From Verrucomicrobiales bacterium (GTDB lineage Bacteria > Verrucomicrobiota > Verrucomicrobiia > Limisphaerales > UBA11358), in NCBI GenBank assembly GCA_028712475.1, contig JAQTQB010000004.1, forward strand, positions 67,368 to 131,367: a DNA stretch of 64,000 bases. Reading direction: 5' to 3'. The notes beneath the pieces are model-generated. The model did no database searches, was not told where the DNA came from, and was given only the letters and a program-made list of their open reading frames with translations. The stretch's first letter is position 1. Each line of letters starts with the position of its first letter. Shown one piece after another: positions 7,507-25,283 of the stretch. The position numbers and the translations under genes were made by a program.

Positions 7507-7537
7507 TAAATCAAGTTTGGAATGATTGGGGGGATGC

Positions 7538-8995: not shown

Positions 8996-9105
8996 CCGCA
9001 CATTTTGGCGGCTGTCAACGCCGGCAAGTCATGGGCAAAACAACGCAACACGGCTCGAAAATCCCGCTCCAAAACGCGCGCCCGGCGCAAATACTTGTTT
9101 CGCAT
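8977..9105 (-). pseudogene. N-terminal fragment of an IS1595-family transposase
   Basis: MRNKYLRRARVLERDFRAVLRCFAHDLPALTAAKMCGVNKNTA matches the characteristic IS1595 N-terminal HTH segment. Only about 43 codons remain, and they abut the truncated IS4 relic. Confidence 0.55.
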
Positions 9106-9167
9106 TGTCAGTCCCAGTGTTTCAGCAGGTTCACACCCGCTCAACTAGGAAAGACCCAAAATAATTT

Positions 9168-10433: not shown

Positions 10434-10482
10434 AAATAGACTGCCCGCAAATAAGCGGCGGGCGGCACTGAAGCAAGCCAAT

Positions 10483-11778
10483 TCAGGCGTGAGTCTCTTT
10501 CACGAACCGTTGCCGCCACTCGCGGCGGGAAATTTTTCCGCGCGCATTGACCGAGAGTGATTTCACAAAATGCCATTCGCGCGGCACCTGCCAGGCCGGC
10601 AGCGTTCGCAGCAAAAATTGTTTCAATTCCATTTCCGTCGCGCCCGCGACGATCACTGCAACGATGATTTCCGTTCGTTCCGCATCACGATCCGGCACGC
10701 CAAAAACCAGGCACTCGCGCACTTGCGGATGCGCGAGCAACGCGCGCTCGACGGTTTCCGGCGATAATTTGCGCCCGGCCACGTTGATCTGGTCGCCCAG
10801 CCGTCCGCGCAGAAAAACCGCGCCTTCTTTCAATTCCGCCAGATCGCTTGTCGAAAAAATCCCGCCGCCGAGCGAATCCGATTTTTCCGGCCAGTAAGTT
10901 TCCGCGACGGCGCGGCTGCGAACGACCAGGCAGCCGGAGTCGTTGAGCGACAAATTTACGCTTTGCATCGGCGCACCGGCGAACGCGGCGTCCGTGCGCG
11001 GCGTTGCGCCCGCGTCGTAAGCGATGCCGCCACATTCGGAGGAGCCAAGAAAATTATGGATTTTGAGGCCGCGCGATTTGAAAATTTCCTGCTCCAGATT
11101 CACCGGCAGCGGCGCGCTGGCGGAAATCGCAAGCCGCACGCCGGCTGGAATCGCATCCGTCGCGTGCCACGCGCGCCACATGGCCGGCACGGCGGCGAGC
11201 GTGACGGCTGGTTCGTTTTCCGCCGCGCGCCGGATGATTTCCGGCAGCGGCGCAGGCGCAAGAATCAGCGGGATGCCGTGGAGCAGCAACGGCAGCACCA
11301 GATTTGAAAATCCGTAGGAATGCGCCATCGAAATGACGCCGAGATTAGGCCAGTCGGGCCGCAGACCCATTGTCGCGACAATGTTTTCCGCGTCGGCCAT
11401 GAGTTGTTCCGCAGTGAAGGCGACGAATCGCGCCGTGCCGCCGGTGGCCGAGGTGGATTTGAGATGAACAATGGGCGGGACGAGGCTGTTGACGGGCCGG
11501 CTCGCAAGGACGCCCGCCCCGCCTTGTCCAGCTTCGAGCGGGCAGACAATTTTATTTTCACGCCACGCGGCGAGCAGATCGAGAATGAATTCCGGCGAAT
11601 GACCTTGCGGCATTGCAATGTCGCACGAACCTGCCGGGGCGGTGTCCGGCGCTCCCTTCCAGCTTTCGCCCGCCGCGAGCAGTTCCGCAAAAGTCCAGCT
11701 CCGTCCCGACGCGGCGTCGCGCAGCGCAAGTTCGTTGCGCCGTTCCCCGGCAATTTTCCGCCAGCGTTCGTAAAGCAT
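10483..11778 (-). CDS. Short adenylate-forming enzyme (AMP-dependent acyl/aryl ligase-like)
   Basis: 431 aa. AMP-binding-type motifs: KSTSATGGTARFV, GSSECGGIAYD, TSDLAELKEGAVFLRGRLGDQINVAGRKLSPETVE and NARGKISRRE. It is the first gene of the lipid-type cluster. Confidence 0.8.
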   Translation of the reverse strand: MLYERWRKIAGERRNELALRDAASGRSWTFAELLAAGESWKGAPDTAPAGSCDIAMPQGHSPEFILDLLAAWRENKIVCPLEAGQGGAGVLASRPVNSLVPPIVHLKSTSATGGTARFVAFTAEQLMADAENIVATMGLRPDWPNLGVISMAHSYGFSNLVLPLLLHGIPLILAPAPLPEIIRRAAENEPAVTLAAVPAMWRAWHATDAIPAGVRLAISASAPLPVNLEQEIFKSRGLKIHNFLGSSECGGIAYDAGATPRTDAAFAGAPMQSVNLSLNDSGCLVVRSRAVAETYWPEKSDSLGGGIFSTSDLAELKEGAVFLRGRLGDQINVAGRKLSPETVERALLAHPQVRECLVFGVPDRDAERTEIIVAVIVAGATEMELKQFLLRTLPAWQVPREWHFVKSLSVNARGKISRREWRQRFVKETHA

Positions 11779-11823
11779 TGTCAGTTTGGTAACGCAGCAT
11801 TAACTTCATGCGCAAGCGAATTG

Positions 11824-12570
11824 ATGATCCTGGCGAAAAATAATTCAATTGAAACCGGCGCGCGACGTTTTGAATTCGCGCGCGACTGTTTCGCCTTTGC
11901 GAACGAATTGGTGTGGGAATACCGGACGGACGCGGCGACGGGCAGGCGGACTTTTGACGCGCGCAACCCCAAACCAGAATATGCCCACCGGTGTTTTGCC
12001 CTCGCACGGGTGGCGCGGCAGTTTTTTTATCACGCGCGGTTTGCGGCAGACCTGCCGGTCTCGACCGATGCAATTTACCGGCAACTTGTCCGCGACGTCA
12101 TGGCCCGCCACCCGCGGATTCCCTGCAAAACAGAAGCGCAAATCATCTTTCCCGGCTATGCGGGTTTGCGCGAATTCAGCCTGGCGCAGGAAAAACTTTT
12201 GAAGACCGAATGCGGCGGCGCGTGGCGCTCGTATTTTTTGCGGAGCCACTGGCGGATGATTTTTCCGTTTTCCCGGGCGCACCAGGCGCGCACCGCCGTG
12301 GCGCTGGCCGCCGCGCTCAAGCAAAATCACCTGCCCATTGTCCATCTGGTGAAATTCCCGGCGCTGACCATCAATCACGCCATCGTTTTGTTCGCCGTGA
12401 CGGAAACCGGGCGCGGCTGGGAATTTGAATCCTACGACCCGAACAATTCCGAAGAGCCGGAGCGGCTCACGTTTGACCGGGCGTCGCAAACTTTTTTTCT
12501 TCCGGCCAATTCCTGCTGGCCCGGCGGCGAATTGAACGTCAGTCACATCTGCCGGTCGTGGTTTTTCTGA
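11824..12570 (+). CDS. Hypothetical protein (248 aa) in the lipid cluster
   Basis: ATG at 11824 (MILAKNNSIETGARRFEF..). The coding-looking ORF has no motif I recognise. The upstream part of the 11320..12570 ORF is antisense to the ligase gene and was discarded. Confidence 0.55.
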   Translation: MILAKNNSIETGARRFEFARDCFAFANELVWEYRTDAATGRRTFDARNPKPEYAHRCFALARVARQFFYHARFAADLPVSTDAIYRQLVRDVMARHPRIPCKTEAQIIFPGYAGLREFSLAQEKLLKTECGGAWRSYFLRSHWRMIFPFSRAHQARTAVALAAALKQNHLPIVHLVKFPALTINHAIVLFAVTETGRGWEFESYDPNNSEEPERLTFDRASQTFFLPANSCWPGGELNVSHICRSWFF

Positions 12571-12917
12571 CCGGCCATGCTGCGTTTTGGACGCCAGAAC
12601 AATGGGCCGAAAAAACTCAAGCCACAGACATTGATGCCGCAGATGTAGCCGATTTTGTAAAGACGCCCGGAATTGTCCGTCGCGAAAATTTCCACGTCCT
12701 GGCCCATGAGCAGGCTTGGCAGCGCGAGCGGCATCAGCGCTCCATGCAACATACCGTAGCCGAAGCCCTTGATTTTATCCTTGGGAAAAGCCCTCGGGGA
12801 CGCCCAGCCGTAAAACCAGCCCAGCAGCAGGGAGGCGATTAAAAAATAGGCAATTTTATTGAGCCACAACTTCTGGCGCGCAGTGAGGGTTCGTTCAGGA
12901 ACGGATGTTGACGGCAT
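12543..12917 (-). CDS. Small membrane protein, unknown function
   Basis: ATG 12917: MPSTSVPERTLTARQKLWLNKIAYFLIASLLLGWFYGW... It has 3 hydrophobic segments. It converges on and overlaps the previous gene by 28 nt. Weak call. Confidence 0.4.
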   Translation of the reverse strand: MPSTSVPERTLTARQKLWLNKIAYFLIASLLLGWFYGWASPRAFPKDKIKGFGYGMLHGALMPLALPSLLMGQDVEIFATDNSGRLYKIGYICGINVCGLSFFGPLFWRPKRSMAGQKNHDRQM

Positions 12918-13057
12918 TTCAGCCACAGCATGATTTTCAAGGCCGGTTGCGCGCAAGGAGAATTTCAGGAAATGAAGGCGGGTTTGTGGGCGCCGCAAAC
13001 TTCACCCTTGAAAAGCTCATTCCAGAAACGCAGGCTGGCGTCACCGGATTGCAAATA

Positions 13058-13861
13058 ATGATTTTTGAGCGGATGGCGACACACACTAAAAACTGGTTCA
13101 AGGGCGTTTTGCAAACGGCGGCATTCTTCGGGGCGTATTTTCTTTTTGCAGCGGTCGGTTCGGTGGTCAGCGTGATCTGCATTGTGCCGGCGGTTTTATT
13201 TCGCGGGGTGCGCGCCCGTGCTTTCGGGCAAAAGCTGATTCATGCGCTGTTCAGGATTTTTGCGGGTTATTTGCGCGCGTCTGGTTTGCTCGAGCTGGAC
13301 GCAGACGAGTTGTCCCGACTGCGCGACAGTAACGGAGTGATTGTCGCGGCGAATCATCCCGGGCTGCTGGACGCGGTGCTGATGGTTTCCCAGATGCCAC
13401 GGGCGGTTTGTCTGATGAAGGGAAGCCTGGCGCGCAACATTGTTTTATCGGGAACGGCGCGGCTGGCCGGGTATATCCACAATAAATCGGGGCTGGGCCT
13501 CGTTAAAAAATGTGAAGAGCGGCTAAACGAGGGGGCGAATCTGCTGGTGTTTCCCGAAGGCACGCGAACCGTGGGCGGGAAATTGCTGCCCTTCAAAATG
13601 GGGTTCGCACTGGCCGCGGTTTCGACCCTGTCGCCGGTGCAGACCGTCATCATCACTGCGGACAGCAACTGCCTGGGCAAAGGCTGGCCGCTGTTCAAGA
13701 AGCCGGCCTTTCCAGTGCGTTATTCCTTGCGGCTGGGCGAGCGCTTTCAGCCGGAGCCGGGCGAGGATGCAAAACATTTTGGCGGAACGGTGGAGAATTA
13801 TTTCCAAAAAACACTTTCCAGCCCCGGGGAGAAAACTGTATCAGCGACCCGACGAAAATGA
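13058..13861 (+). CDS. Lysophospholipid acyltransferase (PlsC/LPLAT family)
   Basis: H(X)4D box AANHPGLLDAVLM and the VFPEGTRT motif. N-terminal TM segment. The start could be ATG 13058 or 13073. The stop overlaps the start of the GT2 gene (ATGA). Confidence 0.85.
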   Translation: MIFERMATHTKNWFKGVLQTAAFFGAYFLFAAVGSVVSVICIVPAVLFRGVRARAFGQKLIHALFRIFAGYLRASGLLELDADELSRLRDSNGVIVAANHPGLLDAVLMVSQMPRAVCLMKGSLARNIVLSGTARLAGYIHNKSGLGLVKKCEERLNEGANLLVFPEGTRTVGGKLLPFKMGFALAAVSTLSPVQTVIITADSNCLGKGWPLFKKPAFPVRYSLRLGERFQPEPGEDAKHFGGTVENYFQKTLSSPGEKTVSATRRK

Positions 13862-14622
13862 CGCCGAGCCAAACCCATCTGGTCATCATCCCCAGCTACA
13901 ATTCGGGAGGCAAACTCGCCGAAACGGTGAAGCAGGCCCTGGCTTGCTGGCGACCCGTGTGGGTCGTGATGGATGGCAGCACAGACGGCAGCGCGGCGGC
14001 CCTGACGGAGGGAAATGGCCTGCGGGTTTTATTTCTGGAACGCAATTCCGGCAAGGGCGCGGCCGTGTTGCACGCGTTGCTTGCGGCGAGCCGGGAGGGT
14101 TTCACCCATGCGCTGGTGCTGGACGCGGACGGCCAGCATTGGGCGGCTGACATTTTCCGTTTCATGCAGGCCTCGCAAAAAAATCCCGCCGCCATGATTC
14201 TGGGCGTGCCGCAGTTTGCCGCCGATGCCCCGGCGTCGCGTAAACATGGCCGGCTCGTGGGCAACTGGTGGGCCAATCTGGAAACCTTCTGGGGCGGAAT
14301 CGAGGATTCGCTGTTCGGTTTCCGTGTTTATCCCATCCAGGAATCAGTGCGCATCCTGCAAGGCACGCGCGGCGCGCGGCGTTTTGATTTCGACACGGAA
14401 CTGGCCGTGCGACTGTTTTGGGCGGGCGTGCCGCCGGTCAATCTTCCCACGCCGGTCCAGTATTTCAAACCGGTGGAAGGCGGCACCTCCCACTTCCATT
14501 ATCTGCGGGACAATTTGCTGCTCATCCGGCGGCACACGCTTTTGGTGCTGGAGATGTTGCCGCAAATGAGACGGATTTGGAAATTGCGCCAGCGGGCAAA
14601 GCACGCGCAGAACTCACAATAG
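13858..14622 (+). CDS. Family 2 glycosyltransferase
   Basis: LVIIPSYNSGGKLAETV..VVMDGSTDGS..NSGKGAAV..LDADGQH are the GT2 (GT-A) signatures. It has a 4-nt start/stop overlap with the acyltransferase gene. Confidence 0.88.
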   Translation: MTPSQTHLVIIPSYNSGGKLAETVKQALACWRPVWVVMDGSTDGSAAALTEGNGLRVLFLERNSGKGAAVLHALLAASREGFTHALVLDADGQHWAADIFRFMQASQKNPAAMILGVPQFAADAPASRKHGRLVGNWWANLETFWGGIEDSLFGFRVYPIQESVRILQGTRGARRFDFDTELAVRLFWAGVPPVNLPTPVQYFKPVEGGTSHFHYLRDNLLLIRRHTLLVLEMLPQMRRIWKLRQRAKHAQNSQ

Positions 14623-14632
14623 CCAATCGTCA

Positions 14633-15688
14633 ATGTCGCAGGAAAAAAATATCGCCGTCGCGCCCGATGCCACCCTGCCCTGGGCTGGCCGCTGGTTTTT
14701 CAACCGCCGCCGGTTTGCCCTGGTTCTGATTCTCGCCATTGGAGTGACCACGCCCGTGTTGCTGGCGCTCAATTGGGATCACAAACTGTTTTTCATCACA
14801 CTGGAACTGGCCACAAAATTTCTGATTGTTTATCCGGCCATTCGCGCCAACTGCCGCTGGTTTGGGCCGGTCGTCACCCGCTTTCGCACGCAGAAAAAAG
14901 CCGTCTGGCTCACCTTTGATGACGGGCCGCATCCCGAAGACACGCCGGAGTTGCTCAAGCTGCTGAAAAAACACAATGCGCGGGCGACGTTTTTCGTGAT
15001 CGGACAGCGGGTCCAAAAATATCCGGAACTGGCGCGGGCGATCTTGCGCGACGGTCACACGCTCGCCAATCACACCCAGACCCATCCCGCCCTGCTCTTC
15101 TGGAGTTTTCTCGCAACCCGCCTGACGCGGGAGATTGATCAATGCAACCAGTCATTGCGCGAAGCCGCCGGCGAACGGACGCATCTTGGCGCTGCCCCCG
15201 CTTTCTCCCTCTCCTCCACCGGGGGAGGAGAGGGTCGGGGTGAGGAGGCATCAATGTTGTCAGTTCAAATTCCCTCTCCCGCCATAGCCGCTGTCGCTGC
15301 TCCCCGTTTGGGCGGGGTGAGGGAGTCGGGGGCGGTGCCAAGATGCGCCCCCGGCGAACCGCCCCGCTGGTTTCGCGCGCCGGCGGGCATGGCCAATCTG
15401 TTCCTGCACTTTTTATTGTGCGACCGGGACATGAAGCTCATCGGCTGGTCGGCGCGCGGATTTGACGGGCTGTTTCACAATACCGAAGCCATGGCCAGGC
15501 GCATCCTCAAATCAATCCGACCCGGCGCGATCATTCTGTTGCACGAAGGCCGGCGCGACCGGCTGGGGCGTCCGGTCAATTTGCTTCTGGCCGAAACCAT
15601 CCTGATTCGGTTGAAGGCGGAAGGCTACGTTTTCACCGTGCCTGATGAAATAGATTTTCGGGGAGAATTAAAACTCACTCCTGAATAA
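14633..15688 (+). CDS. NodB-type polysaccharide deacetylase with N-terminal TM segments, carrying a 183-bp in-frame MITE insertion
   Basis: NodB motifs WLTFDDGPHPEDT, ATFFVIG, HTLANHTQTHP, then ..RWFRAPAG.. and ..IILLHEG. About 61 codons between GER and PRWFRAPAG derive from the repeat at 15177..15350. Confidence 0.88.
   Translation: MSQEKNIAVAPDATLPWAGRWFFNRRRFALVLILAIGVTTPVLLALNWDHKLFFITLELATKFLIVYPAIRANCRWFGPVVTRFRTQKKAVWLTFDDGPHPEDTPELLKLLKKHNARATFFVIGQRVQKYPELARAILRDGHTLANHTQTHPALLFWSFLATRLTREIDQCNQSLREAAGERTHLGAAPAFSLSSTGGGEGRGEEASMLSVQIPSPAIAAVAAPRLGGVRESGAVPRCAPGEPPRWFRAPAGMANLFLHFLLCDRDMKLIGWSARGFDGLFHNTEAMARRILKSIRPGAIILLHEGRRDRLGRPVNLLLAETILIRLKAEGYVFTVPDEIDFRGELKLTPE
15177..15350. 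mobile_element. MITE-like element (about 174 bp) with terminal inverted repeats and a 9-bp target-site duplication, inside the deacetylase CDS
   Basis: The ends ggacgcatcttggcgctgcccccg and cgggggcggtgccaagatgcgcccc are inverted repeats. It is flanked by the direct repeat ccggcgaac at 15168..15176 and 15351..15359. Element plus one TSD copy is 183 bp, or 61 codons. A second copy in inverted orientation lies at 20715..20876. Confidence 0.8.
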
Positions 15689-15726
15689 TCTTGATCACCC
15701 ATGCTCTTTTGATCAATTGATCTTGC

Positions 15727-17094
15727 GTGCCGAAGAAATCCACGCGCCAGCCAAAACCGCTTTACCGCCAGAAGAAGCCTAAAATTAAAGGCGATGATTT
15801 TGTCCATGCCGAGCCGATTGTTCCCGCGCATTTTGAACTCCGCGAAGACGGAACGATTGACGTTGCCAAGCGCGACGAGAAACGCGCCCCGGTTCTGACC
15901 TTCCGCGACGACACCCGCAACCTCTGGCTCTATCAAGGCAACTCCCTTGAATTGCTCGACGCCATCGCCGCCAAACATCCCGAAGGCCGGTTTGATTGCA
16001 TCTTTGCCGATCCACCGTATTTCCTTTCCAACGGAGGCATCAGTTGCCACGCCGGGCGGATGGTGAAGGTGGACAAGGGCGACTGGGACAAATCACGCGG
16101 TGCGGAAGTGAATCACGAGTTCAATCTGGAATGGCTCAAACGCTGCCAGAAAGTTTTGAAACCCAACGGCACAATTTGGATTACCGGCACGCATCACGTC
16201 ATTTTCAGCATCGGCTATGCGATGCAACAACTCGGTTTCAAAATCCTCAACGACATCGCATGGGAAAAGCCTAACCCGCCGCCGAATCTTTCCTGCCGTT
16301 ATTTCACCCACTCCACCGAAACCATTTTGTGGGCGGCCAAAAGTGAAAAATCCAAGCACCTGTTCAACTATCAGGAAATGCGCAAGGTCACGGGCAAGCA
16401 GATGAAAACCGTCTGGCGTGCCAGTGAATTTGGTGGTAGGGCGCGTCACTCCGTGCGCGCCGATGCTGGTCAGCCAGAAGACGGCGCGCAGGGGACTGAC
16501 GCGCCCTACCTTGACCCCATTTGGACGATGACTGCGCCGGGCAACGGCGAAAAGACCTTTGGCAAACATCCCACGCAAAAGCCGGTGGCGCTGGTCGAGC
16601 GTTGCATCTTGGCCTCCACACAACCCGGCGACATGGTGCTTGACCCGTTTTTGGGCGGCGGCACAACTGCCGTGGCTTGCGTCCGGCTGAATCGTGGCTG
16701 CATCGGGATTGAATTGGACTTCTCGCATTTCACGCTGGCGGCCAAACGTGCCGACCGAGAAATCATTGAACTTTGGCTGCGCGAATTCCGCGTGCGTTTC
16801 GACGTTACGATCTTTTTTCCTAATGATCTTGATCTCTTTTCTGAAACGATCAATGGATCAAGCGCGACGATGGACGACAAACCTCAAGTGCCGACCGAAA
16901 GCATTTACCACGAATGTAAATTCGTGTTCCTTTCGTGCGCCCAAGTCGAGCGCGGCGCGGTGGTTCACACGACGGTGGACGTGAGCTTGCAAGAAGCATG
17001 GGCGAAAACGCCGAATGGAAAGAAACGCGAGACGACGCACGTTGTCAGGTGTGAGACGGAAATTTTTCGTGTGGCTGAAAAGAAGCCGGTCTGA
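15727..17094 (+). CDS. Beta-class DNA methyltransferase (N6-adenine or N4-cytosine) with an uncharacterised C-terminal extension of about 100 aa
   Basis: Motif IV IFADPPYF precedes HPTQKPVALVERCI and motif I VLDPFLGGGTTAVAC. Residues after about 350 match nothing I recognise. A palindromic repeat is inserted in frame at 16435..16510. GTG start. Confidence 0.85.
   Translation: MPKKSTRQPKPLYRQKKPKIKGDDFVHAEPIVPAHFELREDGTIDVAKRDEKRAPVLTFRDDTRNLWLYQGNSLELLDAIAAKHPEGRFDCIFADPPYFLSNGGISCHAGRMVKVDKGDWDKSRGAEVNHEFNLEWLKRCQKVLKPNGTIWITGTHHVIFSIGYAMQQLGFKILNDIAWEKPNPPPNLSCRYFTHSTETILWAAKSEKSKHLFNYQEMRKVTGKQMKTVWRASEFGGRARHSVRADAGQPEDGAQGTDAPYLDPIWTMTAPGNGEKTFGKHPTQKPVALVERCILASTQPGDMVLDPFLGGGTTAVACVRLNRGCIGIELDFSHFTLAAKRADREIIELWLREFRVRFDVTIFFPNDLDLFSETINGSSATMDDKPQVPTESIYHECKFVFLSCAQVERGAVVHTTVDVSLQEAWAKTPNGKKRETTHVVRCETEIFRVAEKKPV
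16435..16510. repeat. 76-bp palindromic repeat (family B) inside the methyltransferase CDS
   Basis: ggtagggcgcgtcactccgtgcgcgcc ... ggcgcgcaggggactgacgcgccctacc forms inverted arms. The first 28 nt are identical to 36214..36241 in hsdM. Here it is translated as [25 protein letters not shown]. Confidence 0.85.
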
Positions 17095-17108
17095 TATGAA
17101 TTGCGGCG

Positions 17109-17870
17109 ATGCCGCAGCCAATCACATGGAAACAACTCGTTGCCGATGCGTTACAAAACCTCGGCGGCGAAGCCTCGCTCAAAGACATCACCGCAAAGTT
17201 AGAGAAAGATCCTCACCGGCCAGAGACCGCAACTTGGCAAGCAACAATCCGCCGTGTTGTTCGTCAATACAGTATTTTTCAATCAGTTAAAACCCAGCAA
17301 GGCTTGGCAGGTTATCGGCTTGTTCAAATGCCGAAGCCAAACCCTTCGGCGCAAAGCAAGTCAGACCCACACGGTGAGCAACAGGGAATGTTGCTGCAAT
17401 TGGGCGCTCTCTGCGGTTACGAAACATTTACCAACTCGACGGACAAGACCATTCGCAAATTTCAGGGCGAACCAATCTCAAGTTTCGCCACTGTGCGAAA
17501 TGATGCTGATGACCTGCTGGCTCTACCGCTCGAAAAAATGCGCAATACGGATGTAATGTGGATGGCTTCAGACTCGGAAGGGCTATATCCCCGTTATGCT
17601 TTTGAAATTGAGCACAGCACAAAGGTCAAAAGCGGCTTGCTCCGGCTTTTAAAGATTCCAGAGCGTTTTCCAACGAAACTATTTGTGATTGGACCTGGAG
17701 ATGAAGAGGCAGATTTATTTTCGCGTTATTTGCGTGAGTCTCCATTCAGACAACACGCGCACCGATTCCGTTTCTATCATTACAAGGAGGTTTCGGATTT
17801 TTATAAAAGCGGCATCAACTTCGATAAGCATCGCAAAAACTGGGAGATTCAATTTGCCAGCGCGTTTTAG
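17109..17870 (+). CDS. Putative type II restriction endonuclease (PD-(D/E)xK-like core, N-terminal winged-helix-like region)
   Basis: It starts 15 nt after the methyltransferase stop. A candidate nuclease motif is NTDVMWMASD..YAFEIEHSTKVKSG (D...E-x-E/K pattern). The region is AT-richer than its surroundings. The call rests on context and the motif only. Confidence 0.5.
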   Translation: MPQPITWKQLVADALQNLGGEASLKDITAKLEKDPHRPETATWQATIRRVVRQYSIFQSVKTQQGLAGYRLVQMPKPNPSAQSKSDPHGEQQGMLLQLGALCGYETFTNSTDKTIRKFQGEPISSFATVRNDADDLLALPLEKMRNTDVMWMASDSEGLYPRYAFEIEHSTKVKSGLLRLLKIPERFPTKLFVIGPGDEEADLFSRYLRESPFRQHAHRFRFYHYKEVSDFYKSGINFDKHRKNWEIQFASAF

Positions 17871-18109
17871 CTTCGTTCGCTGTTTTGCTCAAATGGGCTG
17901 AAGAGGAATGTGGCAGTGCTGACGCTTATCAACGATACCGCTATAATGTCGAAAGTTTTCCGAATGGCGGTTGCGTCTATCTGCACCGGCCAGCCTTCAA
18001 GAACAAAGGATGCGATTTTGTGGTGAACTGTGTGCCGCTGATTCCCCGCGATGATGGCAAGCAATACAAAAACCCAAGGCATGAGGATTTGGCTGGCGAT
18101 GTGAAAACA

Positions 18110-18137
18110 GTTGAGGGTTGAGGGTTGAAAGTTGAAG
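18110..18137. repeat. Heptanucleotide tandem array (4 units)
   Basis: gttgagg gttgagg gttgaaa gttgaag. Confidence 0.8.
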
Positions 18138-18193
18138 GCAAAAAGCCGGCACCTCACCCTGCCCTCTCCCCGTTCGAGGCGGAGAGAATCACA

Positions 18194-18230
18194 CAGCCGG
18201 AATGAGAAATCGTTCCGGCTGTTTTATTTT
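18194..18230 (+). terminator. Intrinsic-terminator-like hairpin plus T-run; part of a 49-bp exact repeat (18192..18240 = 19185..19233)
   Basis: 9-bp stem cagccggaa / ttccggctg, 10-nt loop, then ttttatttt. The whole 49-mer cacagccggaatgagaaatcgttccggctgttttattttaccgtgcctg recurs exactly at 19185..19233. Confidence 0.7.
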
Positions 18231-18359
18231 ACCGTGCCTGAAGAAAAAGATTTTCTCTGAAACCGCCCCTGCGCTCAATTACTTTATGACCCTTTTACAA
18301 TCAAAATAATGGCTTGCCCGCCGAATTGACGCCGCCGCAATGCTTCTCTAATCTCCGGC

Positions 18360-18659
18360 ATGGCGAAAAAGATTTCCGGCGCGAAAACTTCCGAGGCTTC
18401 CGGTGGTTCCGGTGTAGCGTCGAGCCTGCGGCTCGATAAATCCGGCCACAGGCCGGACACTACACGGCAAAAACCCAGCTCCCTCCTCGACACCCGCGTC
18501 GTTTATTGCGGTGACAATCTGGAATAGCTCGCCAAGCTGCCCAATGCCTGCGTGGATTTGATCTACATTGACCCGCCCTTCAACTCCAACCGCAACTACG
18601 AGGTGTTTTGGGGCGAGACCAAGGAGAAGCGCGCCTTTGAAGACCGCCACGAGAACTAA
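18360..18659 (+). pseudogene. N-terminal fragment of a DNA methyltransferase with an in-frame stop
   Basis: MAKKISGAK...VVYCGDNLE*LAKLPNACVDLIYIDPPFNSNRNYEVFWGETKEKRAFEDRHEN*. The DPPF motif IV region is present, TAG at 18525..18527 is in frame, and there is no motif I or C-terminal part. Confidence 0.7.
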
Positions 18660-18661
18660 AT

Positions 18662-18889
18662 GTGGAACTGGACGGCAGCCAGCACGGTTTCCCCGACCAG
18701 CGGAAACACGACGAGGAACGGGAAAAGTTTCTGCAATCGCGCGGCATCAAGACGCTGCGGTTTTGGAATTCGCATTTGCGACGCAACGCACAAAGCATCC
18801 GTGACACGATTTTCGATGAGTTGCAGGCACGCGCTCCGCGTCCCTTGCCGGAATACACCCGACCGATGAAAGTTGTAAGGAAAAGTTAG
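18662..18889 (+). pseudogene. C-terminal fragment of a DUF559 (Vsr-like endonuclease domain) protein
   Basis: (V)ELDGSQHGFPDQRKHDEEREKFLQSRGIKTLRFWNSHL matches the DUF559 core pattern (E-x-DG-x-x-H ... D..R...L...G..vlRF.N). The N-terminal part is missing. It starts 2 nt after the methyltransferase fragment. Confidence 0.6.
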
Positions 18890-18896
18890 TTGAACG

Positions 18897-19180
18897 TCCT
18901 CCCTCACCCAACTCTCTCCCCAAGGAGAGGGCTTTCGCGTCCGCCGTCCCCTTGAAAATCCGCACGCCGGGATTTGCCGGATGGTCAATCGAATCACCGA
19001 AATCGTGGCTGCTAAAATCCTCTCCTGGGGGAGAGGACACAGGTGAGGGCGGGCTAAAACACAAATTAAATTGGTTGAACAACCGCCCCCACCCCGGCCC
19101 TCTCCTCCGATGTGACCTTGCGGACAAGGCAGGGACGGCGCGCTGTGCCGTCCGGTTATCGCAGCGCGATGACCTGCCGT
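18897..19180. repeat. Cluster of short interspersed repeat modules (ctcaccc..ctctcc..ggagag type and a GC palindrome)
   Basis: Modules at about 18897..18933, 19019..19052 (inverted) and 19086..19110 share the cctcaccc..ccctctcc..ggagagg core. The same core occurs inside the MITE copies (15205..15248, 20803..20850) and at 18145..18187. Confidence 0.7.
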
Positions 19181-19186
19181 AAAGCA

Positions 19187-19223
19187 CAGCCGGAATGAGA
19201 AATCGTTCCGGCTGTTTTATTTT
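19187..19223 (+). terminator. Second copy of the terminator-like hairpin (within the 49-bp repeat 19185..19233)
   Basis: Identical sequence to 18192..18240. Confidence 0.65.
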
Positions 19224-19344
19224 ACCGTGCCTGGTGATATTTCTGCGTATATTGCCCGGCCGGACACTCAAACGCGACGGCTTGGATTTGATGCAGTTTG
19301 AGGCTGGAGCTTGAGTTCGGCGCGTGTTTCTCTTATCTGACACC

Positions 19345-20034
19345 ATGTTTTTGAGTCATCGTTCCATGCAAGCGGAGTATTTTGACCTGCCGGACCGCAC
19401 GGAGGTTGAGACTGCGGCTTCGTTCCGGGAACTCAACCGCGTCAATTGTCTCTTCCGCTTCTCGCATCCGTTTGAATCGGTGCTGCCTCAATGGCTTGGC
19501 GAGGCGAATTGCGAACGGCTGGAGATTCTCGACGTGGGCGCAGGCACGGGGCTGCTCGGCAAAACATTAACGGAATGGGCGGCGCGGCGCGGCTGGCAGT
19601 GGCGCTTCACCAATCTGGACACCAACCCGGTCGCGCTGAAAATTGGCGGGCAGCCGGACGGCGTCGTGGGTTCGGCGCTGCAACTGCCGTTCGCCGACGG
19701 CAGCTTCGATCTCGTCGTCGCCTCGCAGATGACCCATCACCTGACCGACGAGCAAGTCGTGACGCACTGGCGCGAGGCGTGGCGGGTGACGCGCGACGCC
19801 ATTTTCATCAGCGATCTGCACCGCAACGCCATGCTTTACGCGCTGGTCTGGCTGACGCTGCATCTGATGCGCGCGAACCGAACCGTGGCTGAAGACGGTT
19901 TGATTTCGGTGCGGCGCGGTTTTCGCCAGAACGAGTGGCGCGGACTGGCGGCGCGGGCGGGAATCCCCGGGGCCAATGTCTGGCGGTATCACGGCACGCG
20001 CATCATCCTGCAGGCGCGGAAAAAAACTTCTTGA
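19345..20034 (+). CDS. Class I SAM-dependent methyltransferase
   Basis: Motif I ILDVGAGTGLLG and post-I/II elements (..LQLPFADGSFDLVVAS..). The start is set at ATG 19345; a GTG at 19324 is also in frame. Confidence 0.85.
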   Translation: MFLSHRSMQAEYFDLPDRTEVETAASFRELNRVNCLFRFSHPFESVLPQWLGEANCERLEILDVGAGTGLLGKTLTEWAARRGWQWRFTNLDTNPVALKIGGQPDGVVGSALQLPFADGSFDLVVASQMTHHLTDEQVVTHWREAWRVTRDAIFISDLHRNAMLYALVWLTLHLMRANRTVAEDGLISVRRGFRQNEWRGLAARAGIPGANVWRYHGTRIILQARKKTS

Positions 20035-20068
20035 ACCGCCGTCAGACCGGCCGGCATCCATTGTTGAG

Positions 20069-20659
20069 TCAATCCGCGCTGTTCGGGTGCAGATCAACCT
20101 TGATCAACGAACCGTCCTCGCTTGAAAGAATGACGGTGCCGACGTCCGCATCATCATTGGGGTCTTTCAATTTGGCGGCCCAGATTTTGACACGCCACTG
20201 CGGGCCGGTGTCGCCGTGTTCCAGCCGGAGCTGCGTGGCCTTGAGCGTGAGTTTTTTCAGCAGCGGCTGCGCGGTGGCAAGCTTGATCGCCTTGTCGGAA
20301 TCAATCTTCAATTTTGATGCGTCCAACGGATCCTTCGCGTCGTCAAACAATTCTAGGAACCGGCCGGGATGCGACACGTCCATTTTCTGGCCGGCGCCGA
20401 ATTTCACCTGGACGGCCTTGAACGTCGAGTCGGGATCATAATACACCACATACCAGATGTCCGGGGTGAGGCTGCCGATGGATTTTTCCGAGCGGATTTG
20501 CACGACTTTGTCCTTGGACTGCACGCCGACGTATTGATCGCCCAGTTTGACCAGTTCAAACGCCGTCGGCTCGGCGGCCAGCGCCAGACAGGCGGTGCTG
20601 AACGTCATGGCCGCACTCACGAGAATTTTTCGCGCGAAATTTTTTTGCTTAATTTTCAT
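20069..20659 (-). CDS. Secreted protein of unknown function (possible tandem PepSY-like folds)
   Basis: ATG 20659: MKIKQKNFARKILVSAAMTFSTACLALAAEP is a signal peptide. 196 aa. The domain call is only by resemblance. Confidence 0.6.
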   Translation of the reverse strand: MKIKQKNFARKILVSAAMTFSTACLALAAEPTAFELVKLGDQYVGVQSKDKVVQIRSEKSIGSLTPDIWYVVYYDPDSTFKAVQVKFGAGQKMDVSHPGRFLELFDDAKDPLDASKLKIDSDKAIKLATAQPLLKKLTLKATQLRLEHGDTGPQWRVKIWAAKLKDPNDDADVGTVILSSEDGSLIKVDLHPNSAD

Positions 20660-20714
20660 GCCCAAAGTATTTATCAGACCGCAGGCAGGTGACAACGATT
20701 AAAATACTCCGACA

Positions 20715-20876
20715 GGGGGCGCATTTTGACACAGCCCTGACTCCCTCGCCCCGCCCAAACGTAGAGACGGTTGGGATGAGGGGATTTGAGATGGAAACAT
20801 TGGTGCCTCCTCACCCCGGCCCTCTCCTCCTCGGGGAGGAGAGGGAGATAACAGGGGCGGTGTCAAGCTGCGCCCC
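20715..20876. mobile_element. Second copy of the MITE-like element (intergenic, inverted relative to 15177..15350)
   Basis: gggggcgcattttgacac ... gtgtcaagctgcgcccc are terminal inverted repeats. The internal sequence aligns with the reverse complement of 15177..15350 along its whole length by eye. I found no clear TSD. Confidence 0.75.
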
Positions 20877-20887
20877 TTTGTCAGCCC

Positions 20888-22051
20888 TTGCAAAACACCC
20901 GGCCAGGCCTGTTCCGCCACCAATACATTGAACCGGCTTTTGTGCTGCGCCATGGGGTGTTCACCCCATTGGTTGCGTCAGGACGTTCCGCTTACTATCA
21001 TCCGCCAGTGTCAAGTCACGGTTATTTTCCAACGGAAGCGGAACTCGCCTTGAACGGCGCGGGTCAGACGGCGTTCCATGAACGCGCCGCCGCCGCGACG
21101 CGCGCGGAATTCGGCAGCGATGTCTTCGTGCGCGCCGTGGTGGAGGTCTCGAATTTCTGCCGTGAAAACTGCACCTACTGCGGGATGCGCCGCGACAACC
21201 GCAGCCTCGCCCGCTACCGCGCGCAGCACGAACAGATCGCCGGGATGCTGATCGAACATCGCCCCGCCAGCGTCACGGACGTGAACATCCAGACGGGCGA
21301 AGACCCGGTGGCCGTGCGCGAAGTCGTGCTGCCGCTCATCGAAACCTTGCGGCGCGAAACGTCCCTCGGCATCAGCGTCTGCCTGGGAACCTTGCCGCCG
21401 GAACTTTACGCCGAACTCCAGGCCGCCGGCGCGAGCATCTTCATCATGAAGTTTGAAGCCGGCGACGCCGCGCAATACGAGCAGTTCCAGGCGCCCGGCA
21501 CTCTGGCGGAACGGCTGCGGCACATCCGCCTGCTCGCGGAAAATGACTGGAACGTCAGTTCCGGCTTTATCGCCGGGCTGCCGGGCCAGACGCCGCGCGA
21601 CCTGTTGAAAAATCTGGAGATGGCGGGTTCGCTGCCGTTGAGCGGCTGCAGCGTCAGCCCGTTCATTCCCGGCGAGGCCACGCCGCTGGCAAAACATCCC
21701 ACGGCGAATCCAGACTGGACTTTTAATTGTGTGAGCGCGCTGCGGCTGATGCGGCCGGACTGGGTCATCCCGGCCGTGAGCGCGTTCAACCTGGCCGCCG
21801 AGGACGGCTACCGGCGCGGCCTGCGCGCGGGCGCCAACCTGGTCACGATCAATCTGACGCCGACGGACCAGCGCGGGGATTACGTCATCTACAAGCGCGA
21901 CCGTTTCATCATGACCGAGGAGCGCGTGCTGACGGCGATTGCAGCGGAAGGGCGCACGCCGTCGAAAACGGGGCTTGCGGATTTTTATCGGGACAAGATG
22001 GCCAACGGCACAGCGGCTGAAAAAAATTCAGAGACCGCAATGCAAACGTGA
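20888..22051 (+). CDS. Radical SAM enzyme (BioB/HydE/PylB-like subgroup)
   Basis: Cluster motif VSNFCRENCTYCGMRRDN (CxxxCxxC). The following segments (VTDVNIQTGEDP, ..GISVCLGTL.., ..IFIMKFEAGD..) fit the BioB/HydE-type TIM barrel. The start is uncertain: TTG 20888 abuts the MITE, and GTG near 21008 is plausible. Confidence 0.8.
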   Translation: MQNTRPGLFRHQYIEPAFVLRHGVFTPLVASGRSAYYHPPVSSHGYFPTEAELALNGAGQTAFHERAAAATRAEFGSDVFVRAVVEVSNFCRENCTYCGMRRDNRSLARYRAQHEQIAGMLIEHRPASVTDVNIQTGEDPVAVREVVLPLIETLRRETSLGISVCLGTLPPELYAELQAAGASIFIMKFEAGDAAQYEQFQAPGTLAERLRHIRLLAENDWNVSSGFIAGLPGQTPRDLLKNLEMAGSLPLSGCSVSPFIPGEATPLAKHPTANPDWTFNCVSALRLMRPDWVIPAVSAFNLAAEDGYRRGLRAGANLVTINLTPTDQRGDYVIYKRDRFIMTEERVLTAIAAEGRTPSKTGLADFYRDKMANGTAAEKNSETAMQT

Positions 22052-22058
22052 GGCGCAT

Positions 22059-23306
22059 GTGCTGTTTCCTCCGTCAAAATCTTTAGCGACCGCACAGCCC
22101 AATCGCGTCGTCGTCACCGGCGCAGGCATCGTCACCGCGCTCGGCCTCGGCTGGCGGGCCAACGCCGAGGGGTTTCGCGCCGGACGCCCCGCCTTTCGTC
22201 GCGTGACGTTGTTCGATGTTTCGCGGCAGCGCGCCAAAATCGCGGCGGAAGTTGATCTGCCATCCGGGCTTCCGCAGACAAAACTTTCCGCGAACACCAT
22301 GCGCCGGCTGGACCGCGCCACCCGGATGCTGCTGCACGCCGCCCATGAAGCTTGGACGCAGGCCGGCTGGGAGCCGTCGGAAGATTTGCCCGTGGTTCTT
22401 GGCACCACCAGCGGCGAAATGGCGCTGGGCGAAAAATTTCTGCAACAGGCCCTCGCATCGCCGCTCATGAAAAGACGGCAGGCAACGCGCGTCGTGCACT
22501 ATCAGGTGCAGCAGCAGGGGCTTGATTTGTGCAGCGCCTTTGGTTTTCAGGGTTCACTCACAACCATTTCCAACGCCTGCGCCTCCGGCGCGAACGCCAT
22601 CGGCCACGCCTGGGAATTGCTGCGGAACGGGCGCGCGGAAAAAGTTTTGACGGGCGGCTATGACATGCTGTGCCAGTTGACTTTTGCCGGATTTGATTCG
22701 CTCCAGGCGCTTTCCCCCGCCCCGTGCCGTCCGTTTGACGCGCAACGCGACGGGCTTACCCTTGGCGAAGGCGCGGCCATCCTGACCTTGGAAACGCTCG
22801 CGCACGCACAAAAACGCGGCGCGGAAATCCTTGGCGAAATCATCGGCTACGGCGCGGCGACCGACACGCATCACCTCACGCAACCGCATCCCGAAGGCGA
22901 CGCGGCTCTGGCCGCGATGACCGCGGCGTGCGCACGCGCAAACATTTCACCGGCGCAAATTGATTACGTCAATGCGCACGGCACGGCCACGCCGCAAAAC
23001 GACGCGACCGAGGCCGCCGCCCTCAACCGCTGGGCGGGCGAAGGCGCAAAATCATTGCGGGTCAGCTCCACGAAGGCCGCCAGCGGGCATCTGCTCGGCG
23101 CGGCGGGCGCAATGGAGGCCGTCGTCTGCCTCATGGCCTTGCGCGGACAATGGCTGCCGCCGCAGATGTCGTTGGATAAAATTGATCCCGCCTGCCGTTT
23201 TCAAATCGTGCGCGGACCGGCGGATGCGAGGATCGAAACGGCGCTCTCCAATTCCTTCGGCTTCGGCGGTGCGAATGCCACGCTCATTTTTCGGAGGTGG
23301 GCGTGA
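22059..23306 (+). CDS. Beta-ketoacyl-ACP synthase (FabF/KAS II-like)
   Basis: The catalytic Cys-His-His context is intact: ISNACASGANAIG, VNAHGTATPQND, STKAASGHLLGAAG. GTG start at 22059, just after the radical SAM stop; the upstream part of the ORF overlaps that gene. Confidence 0.9.
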   Translation: MLFPPSKSLATAQPNRVVVTGAGIVTALGLGWRANAEGFRAGRPAFRRVTLFDVSRQRAKIAAEVDLPSGLPQTKLSANTMRRLDRATRMLLHAAHEAWTQAGWEPSEDLPVVLGTTSGEMALGEKFLQQALASPLMKRRQATRVVHYQVQQQGLDLCSAFGFQGSLTTISNACASGANAIGHAWELLRNGRAEKVLTGGYDMLCQLTFAGFDSLQALSPAPCRPFDAQRDGLTLGEGAAILTLETLAHAQKRGAEILGEIIGYGAATDTHHLTQPHPEGDAALAAMTAACARANISPAQIDYVNAHGTATPQNDATEAAALNRWAGEGAKSLRVSSTKAASGHLLGAAGAMEAVVCLMALRGQWLPPQMSLDKIDPACRFQIVRGPADARIETALSNSFGFGGANATLIFRRWA

Positions 23307-24340
23307 ACCGGATTTTCGTCCGCGGCCTCGGCGCAGTCTCCCCGGCGGGCTGGGGTGTTGAAAAATTATGCGCGGCCCTGGACAAGGGCGAATCCCTTCC
23401 GGCGCAAAACCTGGCGCGTCCGGGCTTGGAAAAGCCGTTGCGTGTCCGCAGCGTGCCGCCGCCGGTGCCGCGCCCGGTTTTTTTTATGCATCCGCGTTTG
23501 CGGCGCGCAAGCGTCATCACGCAGCACACCGTGGCCGCCGCGCTCGAAGCGCTGGGCGGCGATGCCGCGCAAGTCCAGTCCGGCGCGTTGCGGCTCGGCA
23601 TCGTGGCTTGCACGATGTCGGGCAGCGTCGCTTACTCACGGCGGTTTTACGAGGAGGTCTTGCGCGCGCCCGAGACGGCAAGCCCGCTGGTTTTTCCCGA
23701 AACGGTTTTCAACGCCCCGGCCAGCCACCTTGCGGCGTATCTCGGCGCGAACGGAAACGGCTGCACGATCGTGGGCGACGATGGAACTTTTTTGCAGGGG
23801 CTGGCGATGGCGGCTGGCTGGCTCCTGAATGACCAGGCGGACGGCGTGGTGGTCGTCGGCGCGGAGGAAACGGACTGGATTGTCTCCGAAGCGATGGGGT
23901 TTTTCCAGCGCGACGCGGTTCACAGCGCCGGCGCCGGCGCGATTTATTTGAGGAGGGAAAAGGCGTCCGCCGCCTGCGCGGAGCTTGCGGCCGTCACGGA
24001 TTCTTTTTTATTCACGCAAAATCAAAACCGCACGGAGGCCGCACGGAAAATGCGGGCGCAGTTGCCGTCCTGTGCGCCAGGGGAACTGCTCGTCGTGAGC
24101 GCGCAACAAAACTCACGGGCGGCGGCGGCGGAAAATCTGGCGTGGGGCGGCTGGTCCGGCAGCCGGCTCGCGCCGAAGGCGGTTCTCGGCGAGGCGTTCG
24201 TGGCATCGTCCGCCTGGCAGTGCGTCGCCGCCTGTGAAGCGGTTGCGCGCGGACAATTTTCCGCCGTGAATGCCAGCGTGGTGGGCGCGAACCAGCAGGC
24301 GATCGGCGCGCGTTTTCTGGCTTGCGCGGAGCCAGTTTAA
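23303..24340 (+). CDS. KS-like partner lacking the active-site cysteine (chain-length-factor-like)
   Basis: Thiolase-fold-like sequence (RIFVRGLGAVSPAGWG..). The position equivalent to ACxSG reads TIVGDDGTFLQGLAMA, and there is no HGT motif. Its GTG overlaps the KS stop (GTGA). Confidence 0.7.
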   Translation: MNRIFVRGLGAVSPAGWGVEKLCAALDKGESLPAQNLARPGLEKPLRVRSVPPPVPRPVFFMHPRLRRASVITQHTVAAALEALGGDAAQVQSGALRLGIVACTMSGSVAYSRRFYEEVLRAPETASPLVFPETVFNAPASHLAAYLGANGNGCTIVGDDGTFLQGLAMAAGWLLNDQADGVVVVGAEETDWIVSEAMGFFQRDAVHSAGAGAIYLRREKASAACAELAAVTDSFLFTQNQNRTEAARKMRAQLPSCAPGELLVVSAQQNSRAAAAENLAWGGWSGSRLAPKAVLGEAFVASSAWQCVAACEAVARGQFSAVNASVVGANQQAIGARFLACAEPV

Positions 24341-24387
24341 GTTACAGGCTTGCCCGCCAAAAAACAGCGGCAGATTATTTATTTTCA

Positions 24388-24660
24388 ATGAACGATTCAA
24401 CGGAACTCAAGGCGCAGATCAAACAGATGCTGGTTGATAACCTGATGCTCAAGATCAGCGCGGCGGAAATCGGGGATGACCAGCCGCTGTTCGGGCCGGG
24501 CAGCCTGGGGCTGGATTCGATAGATGCAATGCAACTGGTCGTCGCCCTGGAAAAAAATCATCAGATGAAGCTTTCCGACATTGAAGTTGCGCGCAAAGTG
24601 ATTCAGACCGTCAACACCATCGCCGCAGCGATTCAAGAACACCAGTCCCTGCCCAGGTAA
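24388..24660 (+). CDS. Acyl carrier protein
   Basis: 90 aa. The phosphopantetheine attachment motif is LGLDSIDAMQLV. Confidence 0.9.
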   Translation: MNDSTELKAQIKQMLVDNLMLKISAAEIGDDQPLFGPGSLGLDSIDAMQLVVALEKNHQMKLSDIEVARKVIQTVNTIAAAIQEHQSLPR

Positions 24661-24761: not shown

Positions 24762-25283
24762 TCAGCGCGCCGGACGTTTGCCCGTCATCAACGCCATGTG
24801 GCGCGGGGCGAGCAGGCACACGAGCGCCGCGCAACGGGCGTAACGCAGCGATTCCGTCTCCAGCTTGCACAGGCTGCCTTTCTTCAGATCAATCTCCATG
24901 CTCGTGTTGCCCGCCGTGAGCAGCGCAATGAACCGGCTCAAGTAAGGTTCGTGGCCCACGAGCAGAATGTTTTTTGGCCGGGGCCGCAACTCGTTCAACT
25001 GCTGGATGAGTGACTTCGGATTGCCACCGGGCGTCAGTTCTTCGGTGAATTTCAACTGCTTCCGGCGCTTGAGGGATTTTGCGACGATTTCCGCCGTCTG
25101 CCTCGCGCGCACATACGGGCTGGAAAGAATCACATCAAAGGAAATTTTCAGCGCAGCCATCGCCTTGGCGATCTGCAACAACCGGCGTCGGCCCTTTGGT
25201 GTGAGCGGACGTTCCGCATCCTTGGCAAAGCCCGGCTTGCTGGGATCAACGGCGATCCCGTGGCGCAATAAATAAAGGTTCAT
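24762..25283 (-). CDS. sixA: Phosphohistidine phosphatase SixA
   Basis: MNLYLLRHGIAV.. carries the RHG catalytic motif, and LLVGHEPYLS is also present. 173 aa. It has a 4-nt overlap with the ppk stop. Confidence 0.88.
   Translation of the reverse strand: MNLYLLRHGIAVDPSKPGFAKDAERPLTPKGRRRLLQIAKAMAALKISFDVILSSPYVRARQTAEIVAKSLKRRKQLKFTEELTPGGNPKSLIQQLNELRPRPKNILLVGHEPYLSRFIALLTAGNTSMEIDLKKGSLCKLETESLRYARCAALVCLLAPRHMALMTGKRPAR

Follow-up and report, generated by a model that had tools for sequence, protein, structure and literature searches.

What does a verrucomicrobial gene cluster make that combines a ketosynthase and its inactive partner with a radical S-adenosylmethionine (SAM) enzyme, an acyltransferase, a glycosyltransferase and a NodB-type deacetylase? 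The question is raised by positions 10483-24660 of a 64,000-nucleotide stretch of DNA from a Verrucomicrobiales bacterium (contig JAQTQB010000004.1), analysed here as a whole and called the window. Aryl polyene (APE) clusters are considered the most widely distributed biosynthetic gene cluster family in bacteria and, to our knowledge, the complete structure of an APE product has been published for one organism only. We think it fairly probable that what the region encodes is one half, responsible for chain building and the lipid anchor, of an APE-type cluster for type II polyketide/fatty-acid synthesis, in a form confined to Verrucomicrobia (Pedosphaerales/Limisphaerales plus a second order). 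The genes of the region were identified by open reading frame (ORF) listing and by Pfam and NCBIfam domain searches, and every gene that had been listed from the sequence alone (hereafter the sequence-only reading) is present:

10483-11778, minus strand: short adenylate-forming (AMP) ligase, 431 amino acids (aa); PF00501 (C-terminal two thirds only) and PF13193 (AMP-binding_C)
11824-12570, plus strand: DUF8321/DUF8322 protein, 248 aa; orthologues bear PF26995 and PF26997
12543-12917, minus strand: small membrane protein, ~124 aa, without a Pfam match; at least 35 related loci keep it as a neighbour of the DUF gene
13058-13861, plus strand: lysophospholipid acyltransferase (LPLAT), ApeD homologue; PF01553
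13858-14622, plus strand: family 2 glycosyltransferase (GT2) of DPM1/PpgS type; PF00535; best NCBIfam match PpgS, below cut-off
14633-15688, plus strand: membrane-anchored NodB/CE4 deacetylase (NodB); PF01522, E = 8e-31, 107 bits against a cut-off of 23.1
15176-15361: in-frame insertion within the NodB gene, resembling a miniature inverted-repeat transposable element (MITE); a gap in the alignment with orthologues
15645-19233: inserted DNA, made up of two segments that are stacked (15645-18240, 18241-19233); recognized by repeats, lower GC content and absence from relatives
15727-17094, plus strand: DNA N6/N4 methyltransferase (CcrM-like), cargo of the insert; PF01555, E = 6e-57; NF050803, 207 bits, below cut-off
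17109-17870, plus strand: ORF of 253 aa, by position a possible partner restriction enzyme; no Pfam or NCBIfam family match
19345-20034, plus strand: class I SAM methyltransferase (MT), 229 aa; PF08241; NF004851, 116 bits, below cut-off; no informative relative in the PDB
20069-20695, minus strand: secreted protein, 208 aa, with an N-terminal signal-like sequence and no Pfam match; in 27 related loci an orthologue is found immediately upstream of the radical SAM gene
20888-22051, plus strand: HydE/PylB-like radical SAM enzyme (rSAM); PF04055
22059-23306, plus strand: ketosynthase (KS); PF00109 and PF02801
23297-24340, plus strand: KS-like partner of chain-length-factor (CLF) type, 347 aa; weak matches to the KS N-domain only
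24322-24660, plus strand: acyl carrier protein (ACP); PF00550; best NCBIfam match NF006617, below cut-off; phosphopantetheine site LGLDS

The synthase at the right-hand end has the make-up of a type II pair. The KS keeps an intact Cys-His-His triad and reaches 365 bits against the FabF model, under the cut-off of 494; in its partner the active-site Cys is replaced by Asp and the His-His pair is absent, and the CLF gene starts before the KS gene has ended, an overlap that fits translational coupling of the two. The likeness to APE clusters, already suspected in the sequence-only reading, was borne out when the cluster proteins were compared by blastp with the ape gene products of Escherichia coli CFT073: LPLAT, GT2, KS and ACP and, from outside the window, LolA, the MMPL transporter and a dehydratase (DH) all match Ape counterparts. 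Among the anchor enzymes, LPLAT matches ApeD (37% over 156 aa, E = 3e-30) and GT2 the N-terminal half of ApeJ (36% over 258 aa, E = 6e-48). On the side of chain building, the KS matches both ApeR (35%, E = 3e-62) and ApeO (35%, E = 8e-49), the ACP matches ApeE (35%, E = 3e-9), the DH matches ApeI (28%, E = 7e-5), and a ketoreductase (KR) that accompanies the orthologous cluster on a related metagenome contig (L016) matches ApeQ (34%, E = 5e-41). The export proteins MMPL and LolA match ApeM (22%, E = 5e-11) and ApeL (27%, E = 1e-5), respectively. Two further matches are weak: that of the AMP ligase to ApeH (25%, E = 6e-4) and that of an LpxL-like domain fused to MMPL to the C-terminal half of ApeJ (25%, E = 0.004). 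ApeA, ApeC, ApeG, ApeK, ApeN and ApeP have no counterpart detectable by blastp.

Several of these proteins are encoded in a second half of the cluster, outside the window and ~42 kb upstream of the ligase gene (C2:26502-34460), which comprises PAP2, a flavin halogenase whose WxWxIP motif is present as WFWIIP, a lipoprotein of 160 aa (h160), an MMPL-LpxL fusion protein (1099 aa) together with LolA (C2:29095-33068), a single FabA/FabZ-like DH (G000:C2:33152-33577), whose L016 orthologue has the ApeI-like PF22818, and a UbiE-type methyltransferase. The displaced genes are contiguous with the rest of the cluster in relatives. Thus, the earlier statement that the locus lacks KR, dehydratase, thioesterase, LolA and MMPL genes is true within the window, while DH, LolA and MMPL are found in the displaced half. 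The MMPL protein (G000:C2:29095-32394) is fused at its C-terminus to a lipid A-type, LpxL-like acyltransferase domain (PF03279). In E. coli a weakly similar domain forms the C-terminal half of ApeJ instead, and to judge by sequence transporter and transferase appear to have swapped the domain between them.

How far the set holds together was followed across relatives. A pattern scan returned 306 loci with a relative of the rSAM, and the best 80 (66-88% identity), nearly all from Verrucomicrobiota metagenome-assembled genomes (MAGs) labelled Limisphaerales, Pedosphaera or subdivision 3, were mapped with the cluster proteins. KS and/or CLF adjoin the rSAM gene in 55 of the 80, with a dedicated KR in 25 of these 55. 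Loci with enough upstream flank mostly show the AMP ligase (minus strand), the DUF protein (plus) and the membrane protein (minus), preceded by halogenase, h160, MMPL, LolA and DH. The most complete arrangement, that of L016, runs MMPL-LpxL fusion, LolA, ApeI-like DH, UbiE-type methyltransferase, PAP2, Na/H exchanger, AMP ligase, DUF protein, membrane protein, LPLAT, GT2, NodB, MT, rSAM, KS, CLF, KR and ACP; a contiguous cluster is also found on a second metagenome contig (L019) and in a genome of the same genus (G001), and the MT gene sits between the NodB and rSAM genes in relatives. The LPLAT-GT2-NodB cassette occurs in only five mapped loci, the window, G001, L016 and L019 also carrying it, and is thus an optional cassette.

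Beyond the order, a complete genome of 3.76 Mb from a second order of the same class (G193) carries rSAM (56% identity), KS, CLF, ACP, halogenase, DH, NodB, LPLAT, GT2 and AMP ligase within 13 kb in a rearranged order, as mapped by tblastn on a locus of 67% GC. An rSAM orthologue is present in 35 of 104 genomes searched in this second order. All nine sampled genomes of one of its genera (g216; e.g. G474:C1 and G478:C1), which are 2.2-2.8 Mb in size and have two pmoA copies, hold an rSAM-KS-CLF-ACP-halogenase cluster (64% GC in the locus that was fetched); this pmoA-carrying genus presumably corresponds to the cultured verrucomicrobial methanotrophs. The claim that the genes form a single cluster holds on this evidence, with one co-conserved set in 80 related loci that is rearranged in the second order. 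The rSAM gene is nonetheless optional in the cluster: among 41 relatives CLF is found in 17 and an orthologous rSAM in only five, the sister clusters without an rSAM gene reading KS-CLF-KR...ACP, and a phylum-wide sample gave an rSAM orthologue in only 4 of 401 genomes. In farther families of the same order (L013 and L121 in G028; L120 in G390), the rSAM gene lies ~5 kb from the KS gene, with a divergent second halogenase-like gene (26-28% identity) and the secreted-protein gene between them. As for the immediate surroundings of the window cluster, the ligase gene is flanked by a Na+/H+ exchanger gene (9168-10481), which recurs beside the cluster in L016, L018, L022, L028, L034 and L051 but shows no evident link to it in function, and downstream of the ACP gene lie SixA and polyphosphate kinase 1 (24762-27535), unrelated housekeeping genes.

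A number of observations weigh against an APE-type assignment. This genome has no orthologue of the cluster KR, the best candidate being the FabG of the fab operon (37%), nor did a dedicated thioesterase or a second copy of KS, ACP or DH turn up in it. FabF gives the KS a higher score than any Ape KS does, the CLF has no similarity to ApeC that blastp detects, and h160 is unlike ApeN in profile comparison (hhalign probability 0.2%). An aromatic head group is likewise unproven, as UbiC, an aromatic ammonia lyase (PF00221) and an FkbO/XanB2 chorismatase were not found in this 98%-complete genome. The LPLAT-GT2-NodB genes are absent from most related loci, the rSAM gene is not beside the KS gene in some loci and in one further genome (G038), and the parts assigned to NodB, to chain attachment and to the radical enzyme are ones that we only infer. 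The published APE/APEL core set consists of KS (apeO/R), ACP (apeE/F), CLF (apeC), DH (apeI/P), KR (apeQ) and the transporter apeM (bioRxiv 10.1101/2020.12.19.423268). Set against this list and its anchor and accessory genes, the present genome has KS, ACP and ApeD/ApeJ-type anchor enzymes, as well as DH and MMPL with LolA outside the window; it has neither the KR ApeQ nor the thioesterase ApeK nor the DUF3261 protein ApeN. For the CLF the picture is mixed, with the function-defining loss of the active-site residues but no blastp similarity to ApeC, and so it is for activation of an aryl acid, with a short ligase of low identity to ApeH and none of the three known starter sources found. Given the missing KR and the single KS, ACP and DH, we file the cluster as an APE-like variant and not as a canonical member.

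If the APE-type reading is right, a pathway can be sketched, which we infer in everything that goes beyond domain identity, homology and synteny. The short AMP ligase, a candidate ApeH analogue, would load a starter acid, probably aromatic, on the ACP, and the heterodimer of KS and inactive KS would elongate it with malonyl units. The FabZ/ApeI-like DH encoded 42 kb upstream, with a KR that would be the housekeeping FabG here and is a dedicated enzyme in relatives, would then yield a conjugated chain, the head group of which may be decorated by the flavin halogenase and the two methyltransferases. In the published APE lipid an aryl polyene is joined by an ester bond to GalNAc-1-phosphate-glycerol bearing two fatty acyl chains; the anchor is built by ApeD and ApeJ, with ApeM, ApeL and ApeN as proposed exporters (bioRxiv 10.1101/2020.12.19.423268). 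By analogy with such lipids, the ApeD-like LPLAT and the ApeJ-like GT2 would make a HexNAc-phosphate-glycerolipid anchor, from which the membrane-anchored NodB would strip the N-acetyl group to leave a free amine; the LPLAT-GT2-NodB cassette would thus build a de-N-acetylated hexosamine-phospholipid anchor. The chain may be attached by the LpxL-like acyltransferase domain of the MMPL fusion, and the finished lipid carried to the outer membrane by MMPL and LolA. The HydE-like rSAM would contribute an optional radical step foreign to canonical APE synthesis, acting either on the starter acid, which it would make or remodel, or on the chain or head group, which it would modify. The product had been judged not predictable from known pathways; for the part played by LPLAT, GT2 and NodB this goes too far, since the published APE-lipid structure supplies a concrete model. 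The suggestion of a modified glycolipid or aminolipid fares better in its first half, a glycolipid broadly fitting the model, while an aminolipid fits only as a possible free-amine hexosamine.

The missing thioesterase draws attention to the DUF8321/8322 protein. In the sequence-only reading this was a hypothetical protein; a real protein does exist, its true ORF lying on the plus strand at 11824-12570, and the minus-strand ORF (11845-12546; Arg/Gly/Pro-rich) was rejected as antisense noise, the plus-strand protein being the conserved one. Its residues Cys51, His179 and Asp199 are invariant in an alignment of 34 sequences. An AlphaFold2 model (pLDDT 84) gave no significant match in Foldseek, none having E < 0.08, and the weak matches that recur are papain-like (IdeS/Mac-1, staphopain, phytochelatin synthase). 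Tentatively, and on the strength of this model, the protein may be a papain-like acyl-transfer or release enzyme that replaces the missing thioesterase. The literature held nothing relevant on DUF8321/8322.

Is the pathway still at work in this genome? Its genes are disrupted in three places. First, ~42 kb (G000:C2:34460-76538, that is, sequence upstream of the window plus window positions 1-9167) part the two cluster halves; the halves are adjacent in a genome of the same genus (G022) and in many MAGs, so the rearrangement happened in this genome. The spacer is not obviously a mobile island, with normal GC and ORFs that, from their N-terminal sequences read by eye, look ordinarily chromosomal; by eye they include large secreted, prepilin-type and sugar-metabolism-like proteins. 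Second, an insert of ~3.6 kb and putative restriction-modification type (~15645-19233) parts NodB from the MT gene. Its GC is 0.49-0.54 against ~0.60 around it, and a core, TTTYACCGTGCCTG, is present in three copies that bound the insert (starts at 15631, 18227 and 19220), with an exact 49-nt repeat at 18192-18240 and 19185-19233 bracketing the second segment; the three core copies and the 49-nt repeat indicate two stacked insert segments. The insert is missing from G001, where only 42 bp separate NodB from the MT gene, and from L016 and L019, where the whole cluster is unbroken. The earlier description of the cluster as split by inserted DNA is thus upheld by repeats, low GC and contiguous relatives. 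Read by eye, the segment 18241-19233 holds apparent gene remnants, a DPPF DNA-methylase-like fragment (~18550-18660) and a DUF559-type tail (~18690-18850), as well as GC-rich palindromic repeat units, and the DNA methyltransferase gene of the insert contains an inverted repeat of 18 nt with a 40-nt loop and 94% complementarity (16435-16510). Third, the NodB gene contains the MITE-like insertion, 61 codons in frame just before motif 3, which the alignment shows in none of three orthologues.

With its pathway broken in these three places, the genome may be partly impaired in making the product. A stronger form of this idea, that the cluster is a decaying remnant whose product is no longer made, seems to us unlikely. 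The three disruptions, set against contiguous relatives, and the absent KR speak for it, as does the patchy distribution within the genus, where CLF is found in 9 of 24 genomes and rSAM in 2 of 24. The G022 genome, moreover, has lost LPLAT-GT2-NodB. In its locus (L012; G022:C1:247500-267000) the MT matches only in three separate tblastn pieces and is probably frameshifted, and a different GT2 (29% identity) stands on the opposite strand; the state of the anchor cassette there suggests ongoing erosion or exchange. Yet all ORFs of both halves are intact and of full length in the present genome. The insert falls between genes, apart from the last NodB codons, which it replaces, and the insertion in NodB keeps the reading frame and leaves the motifs TFDDG, HTQTH, RWFRAPAG and LLHEG intact, all catalytic and metal motifs being invariant in the alignment. 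Nor is the absence of a KR peculiar to this genome, L019 also lacking one between CLF and ACP.

A second alternative, quite unlikely in our judgement, concerns the product and not its survival: the cluster would be a "ladderane-type" extended fatty-acid synthase cluster, and in place of an aryl polyene its product would be a polyunsaturated fatty acid or hydrocarbon, non-aromatic and radically modified. Such clusters were first flagged in anammox bacteria and Desulfotalea, and the Kuenenia genes kuste3335-3352 parallel the present gene content with a glycosyltransferase, a polysaccharide-deacetylase-like protein, an aryl/phenylacetyl-CoA-type ligase, SAM methylases, radical SAM enzymes, FabF and a non-canonical FabF, ACPs, FabZ and FabG (PMC2649909, PMC4790861). 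The KS and CLF match both chains of the structure PDB 9s5h (240 bits for the KS against 9s5h_B), which is probably the anammox FabF heterodimer of bioRxiv 10.64898/2026.05.19.726425. The DH matches the dehydratase structures 7qv0 and 8ayb-8ayi, which may be anammox FabZ, and the known routes to an aryl starter are absent from the genome. Canonical FabF and FabZ structures nevertheless outscore these candidate anammox entries, the cluster has no phytoene-desaturase-like gene, and the best match to the B12 radical SAM marker TIGR04072 in the whole genome reaches 90 bits against a cut-off of 360 and lies outside this cluster. The WxWxIP halogenase and the UbiE-type methyltransferase point instead to an aromatic head group.

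It is very improbable that chance has joined two unrelated operons, one running from ligase to NodB on the left and the other from MT to ACP on the right. The genes do lie on both strands in several transcription units, and most related loci are without LPLAT-GT2-NodB; but the AMP ligase, DUF and membrane-protein genes travel with rSAM-KS-CLF-ACP in most loci that have enough flank, the G193 locus clusters LPLAT, GT2, NodB, AMP ligase, rSAM, KS, CLF and ACP in a different order in another order of bacteria, and LPLAT and GT2 are homologous to APE-cluster proteins. Weakest of all, and scarcely credible, is an rSAM that is a housekeeping HydE or biotin synthase merely beside a fatty-acid operon: JGI labels its homologues "biotin synthase" and its best family and PDB matches are HydE, but it stays under the cut-offs for both, contig C28 of the same genome encodes a genuine BioB (372 bits), a search for HydG, though not for HydF or HydA, gave no match above cut-off in this 98%-complete genome, and its orthologues, found in only 4 of 401 sampled genomes of the phylum, mostly lie beside KS/CLF/ACP genes, so that we reject both the HydE maturase and the BioB role.

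The rSAM has the CxxxCxxC motif and two further cysteines, Cys111 and Cys200, invariant among six orthologues; its start codon is ambiguous (20888 or 21050). NCBIfam scores are 176.6 for HydE (TIGR03956; cut-off 254.6), 109 for PylB and 57 for BioB (TIGR00433; cut-off 225), and the PDB search ranks HydE (150 bits) over PylB (71 bits). The subfamily is isolated: a library of 1.84 billion proteins clustered at 50% holds only two full-length clusters at least 50% identical to it, identity falling from 55% straight to 41% or less. From its sequence, we regard the rSAM as belonging to a small, isolated HydE-like subfamily of two verrucomicrobial orders, usually encoded beside KS/CLF/ACP genes. That it substitutes for the missing aryl-starter route was considered, and is neither supported nor excluded, there being no anticorrelation in 41 relatives, and sister clusters without rSAM lacking such routes too. 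We found nothing relevant in the literature linking radical SAM or HydE-like enzymes to aryl polyenes or ketosynthases. It is conceivable, though on balance we doubt it, that the rSAM works with a type II polyketide/fatty-acid synthase as a radical SAM partner of a new kind, forming or rearranging C-C or C-S bonds on the starter acid or the ACP-bound chain, and that its action, together with the amine exposed by NodB, gives polyene lipids of a new class in the outer membrane of soil, freshwater and methanotrophic Verrucomicrobia. Were this true, the cluster would offer a tractable model for radical-SAM-equipped "ladderane-like" lipid clusters. Orthologous clusters exist in complete genomes, including those of the pmoA-carrying genus, which opens the radical step and the final lipid to ordinary genetics and lipidomics.

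How, then, does this cluster compare with known systems? The rSAM shares with the HydE maturase (Thermotoga maritima, PDB 3ciw and 5fep) and with PylB the radical SAM TIM-barrel subfamily and the CxxxCxxC motif, and is set apart from HydE by its place in a polyketide/lipid cluster and by a score under the curated HydE cut-off. With the APE clusters of E. coli CFT073 and Xenorhabdus doucetiae (apeA-R) the cluster has in common a type II KS with a partner that has lost the active-site residues, a discrete ACP, a short adenylating enzyme, here only weakly like ApeH, an ApeI-like DH, an ApeD-like LPLAT, an ApeJ-like GT2, a LolA-like protein, an MMPL transporter, a SAM methyltransferase and, in relatives only, a KR. 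It differs from them in several respects: APE clusters have two KS, two ACP and two DH, where the verrucomicrobial cluster has one of each; the CLF is 347 aa long, against 240 aa for ApeC, and has diverged beyond recognition; the domain like the ApeJ C-terminus is fused to MMPL; and no UbiC was found that would supply 4-hydroxybenzoate. Extra here are the HydE-like rSAM, NodB, the DUF8321/8322 Cys-His-Asp protein, the secreted 208-aa protein, PAP2 and the flavin halogenase. Some of these extras have parallels in the xanthomonadin and flexirubin clusters, which make halogenated or methylated aryl polyenes and, as here, place a flavin-dependent halogenase and methyltransferases by an APE-type synthase; they also include an aryl-acid:ACP ligase, an acyltransferase, a glycosyltransferase and LolA/MMPL export. 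They differ in their XanB2-type chorismatase and tyrosine ammonia lyase, which were not found in this genome, and we know of no radical SAM enzyme or NodB reported from them. With the "ladderane-candidate" clusters (Kuenenia kuste3335-3352 and kuste3603-3608, and those of Desulfotalea and Geobacter relatives), radical-SAM-rich sets whose chemistry has been unsolved since 2009, the gene set overlaps in its pair of active and inactive FabF, ACP, FabZ, aryl-type CoA ligase, glycosyltransferase, deacetylase-like protein, SAM methylases and radical SAM enzyme, and is distinguished from them, the Kuenenia set being compared by gene descriptions and not by sequences, by an rSAM that is HydE-like and not B12-binding (TIGR04072) and by the presence of a halogenase. 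Overall, to the clusters studied so far the verrucomicrobial variant adds three elements: a HydE-like radical SAM enzyme that is an orphan, a putative deacetylase of lipid sugars and a conserved Cys-His-Asp protein.

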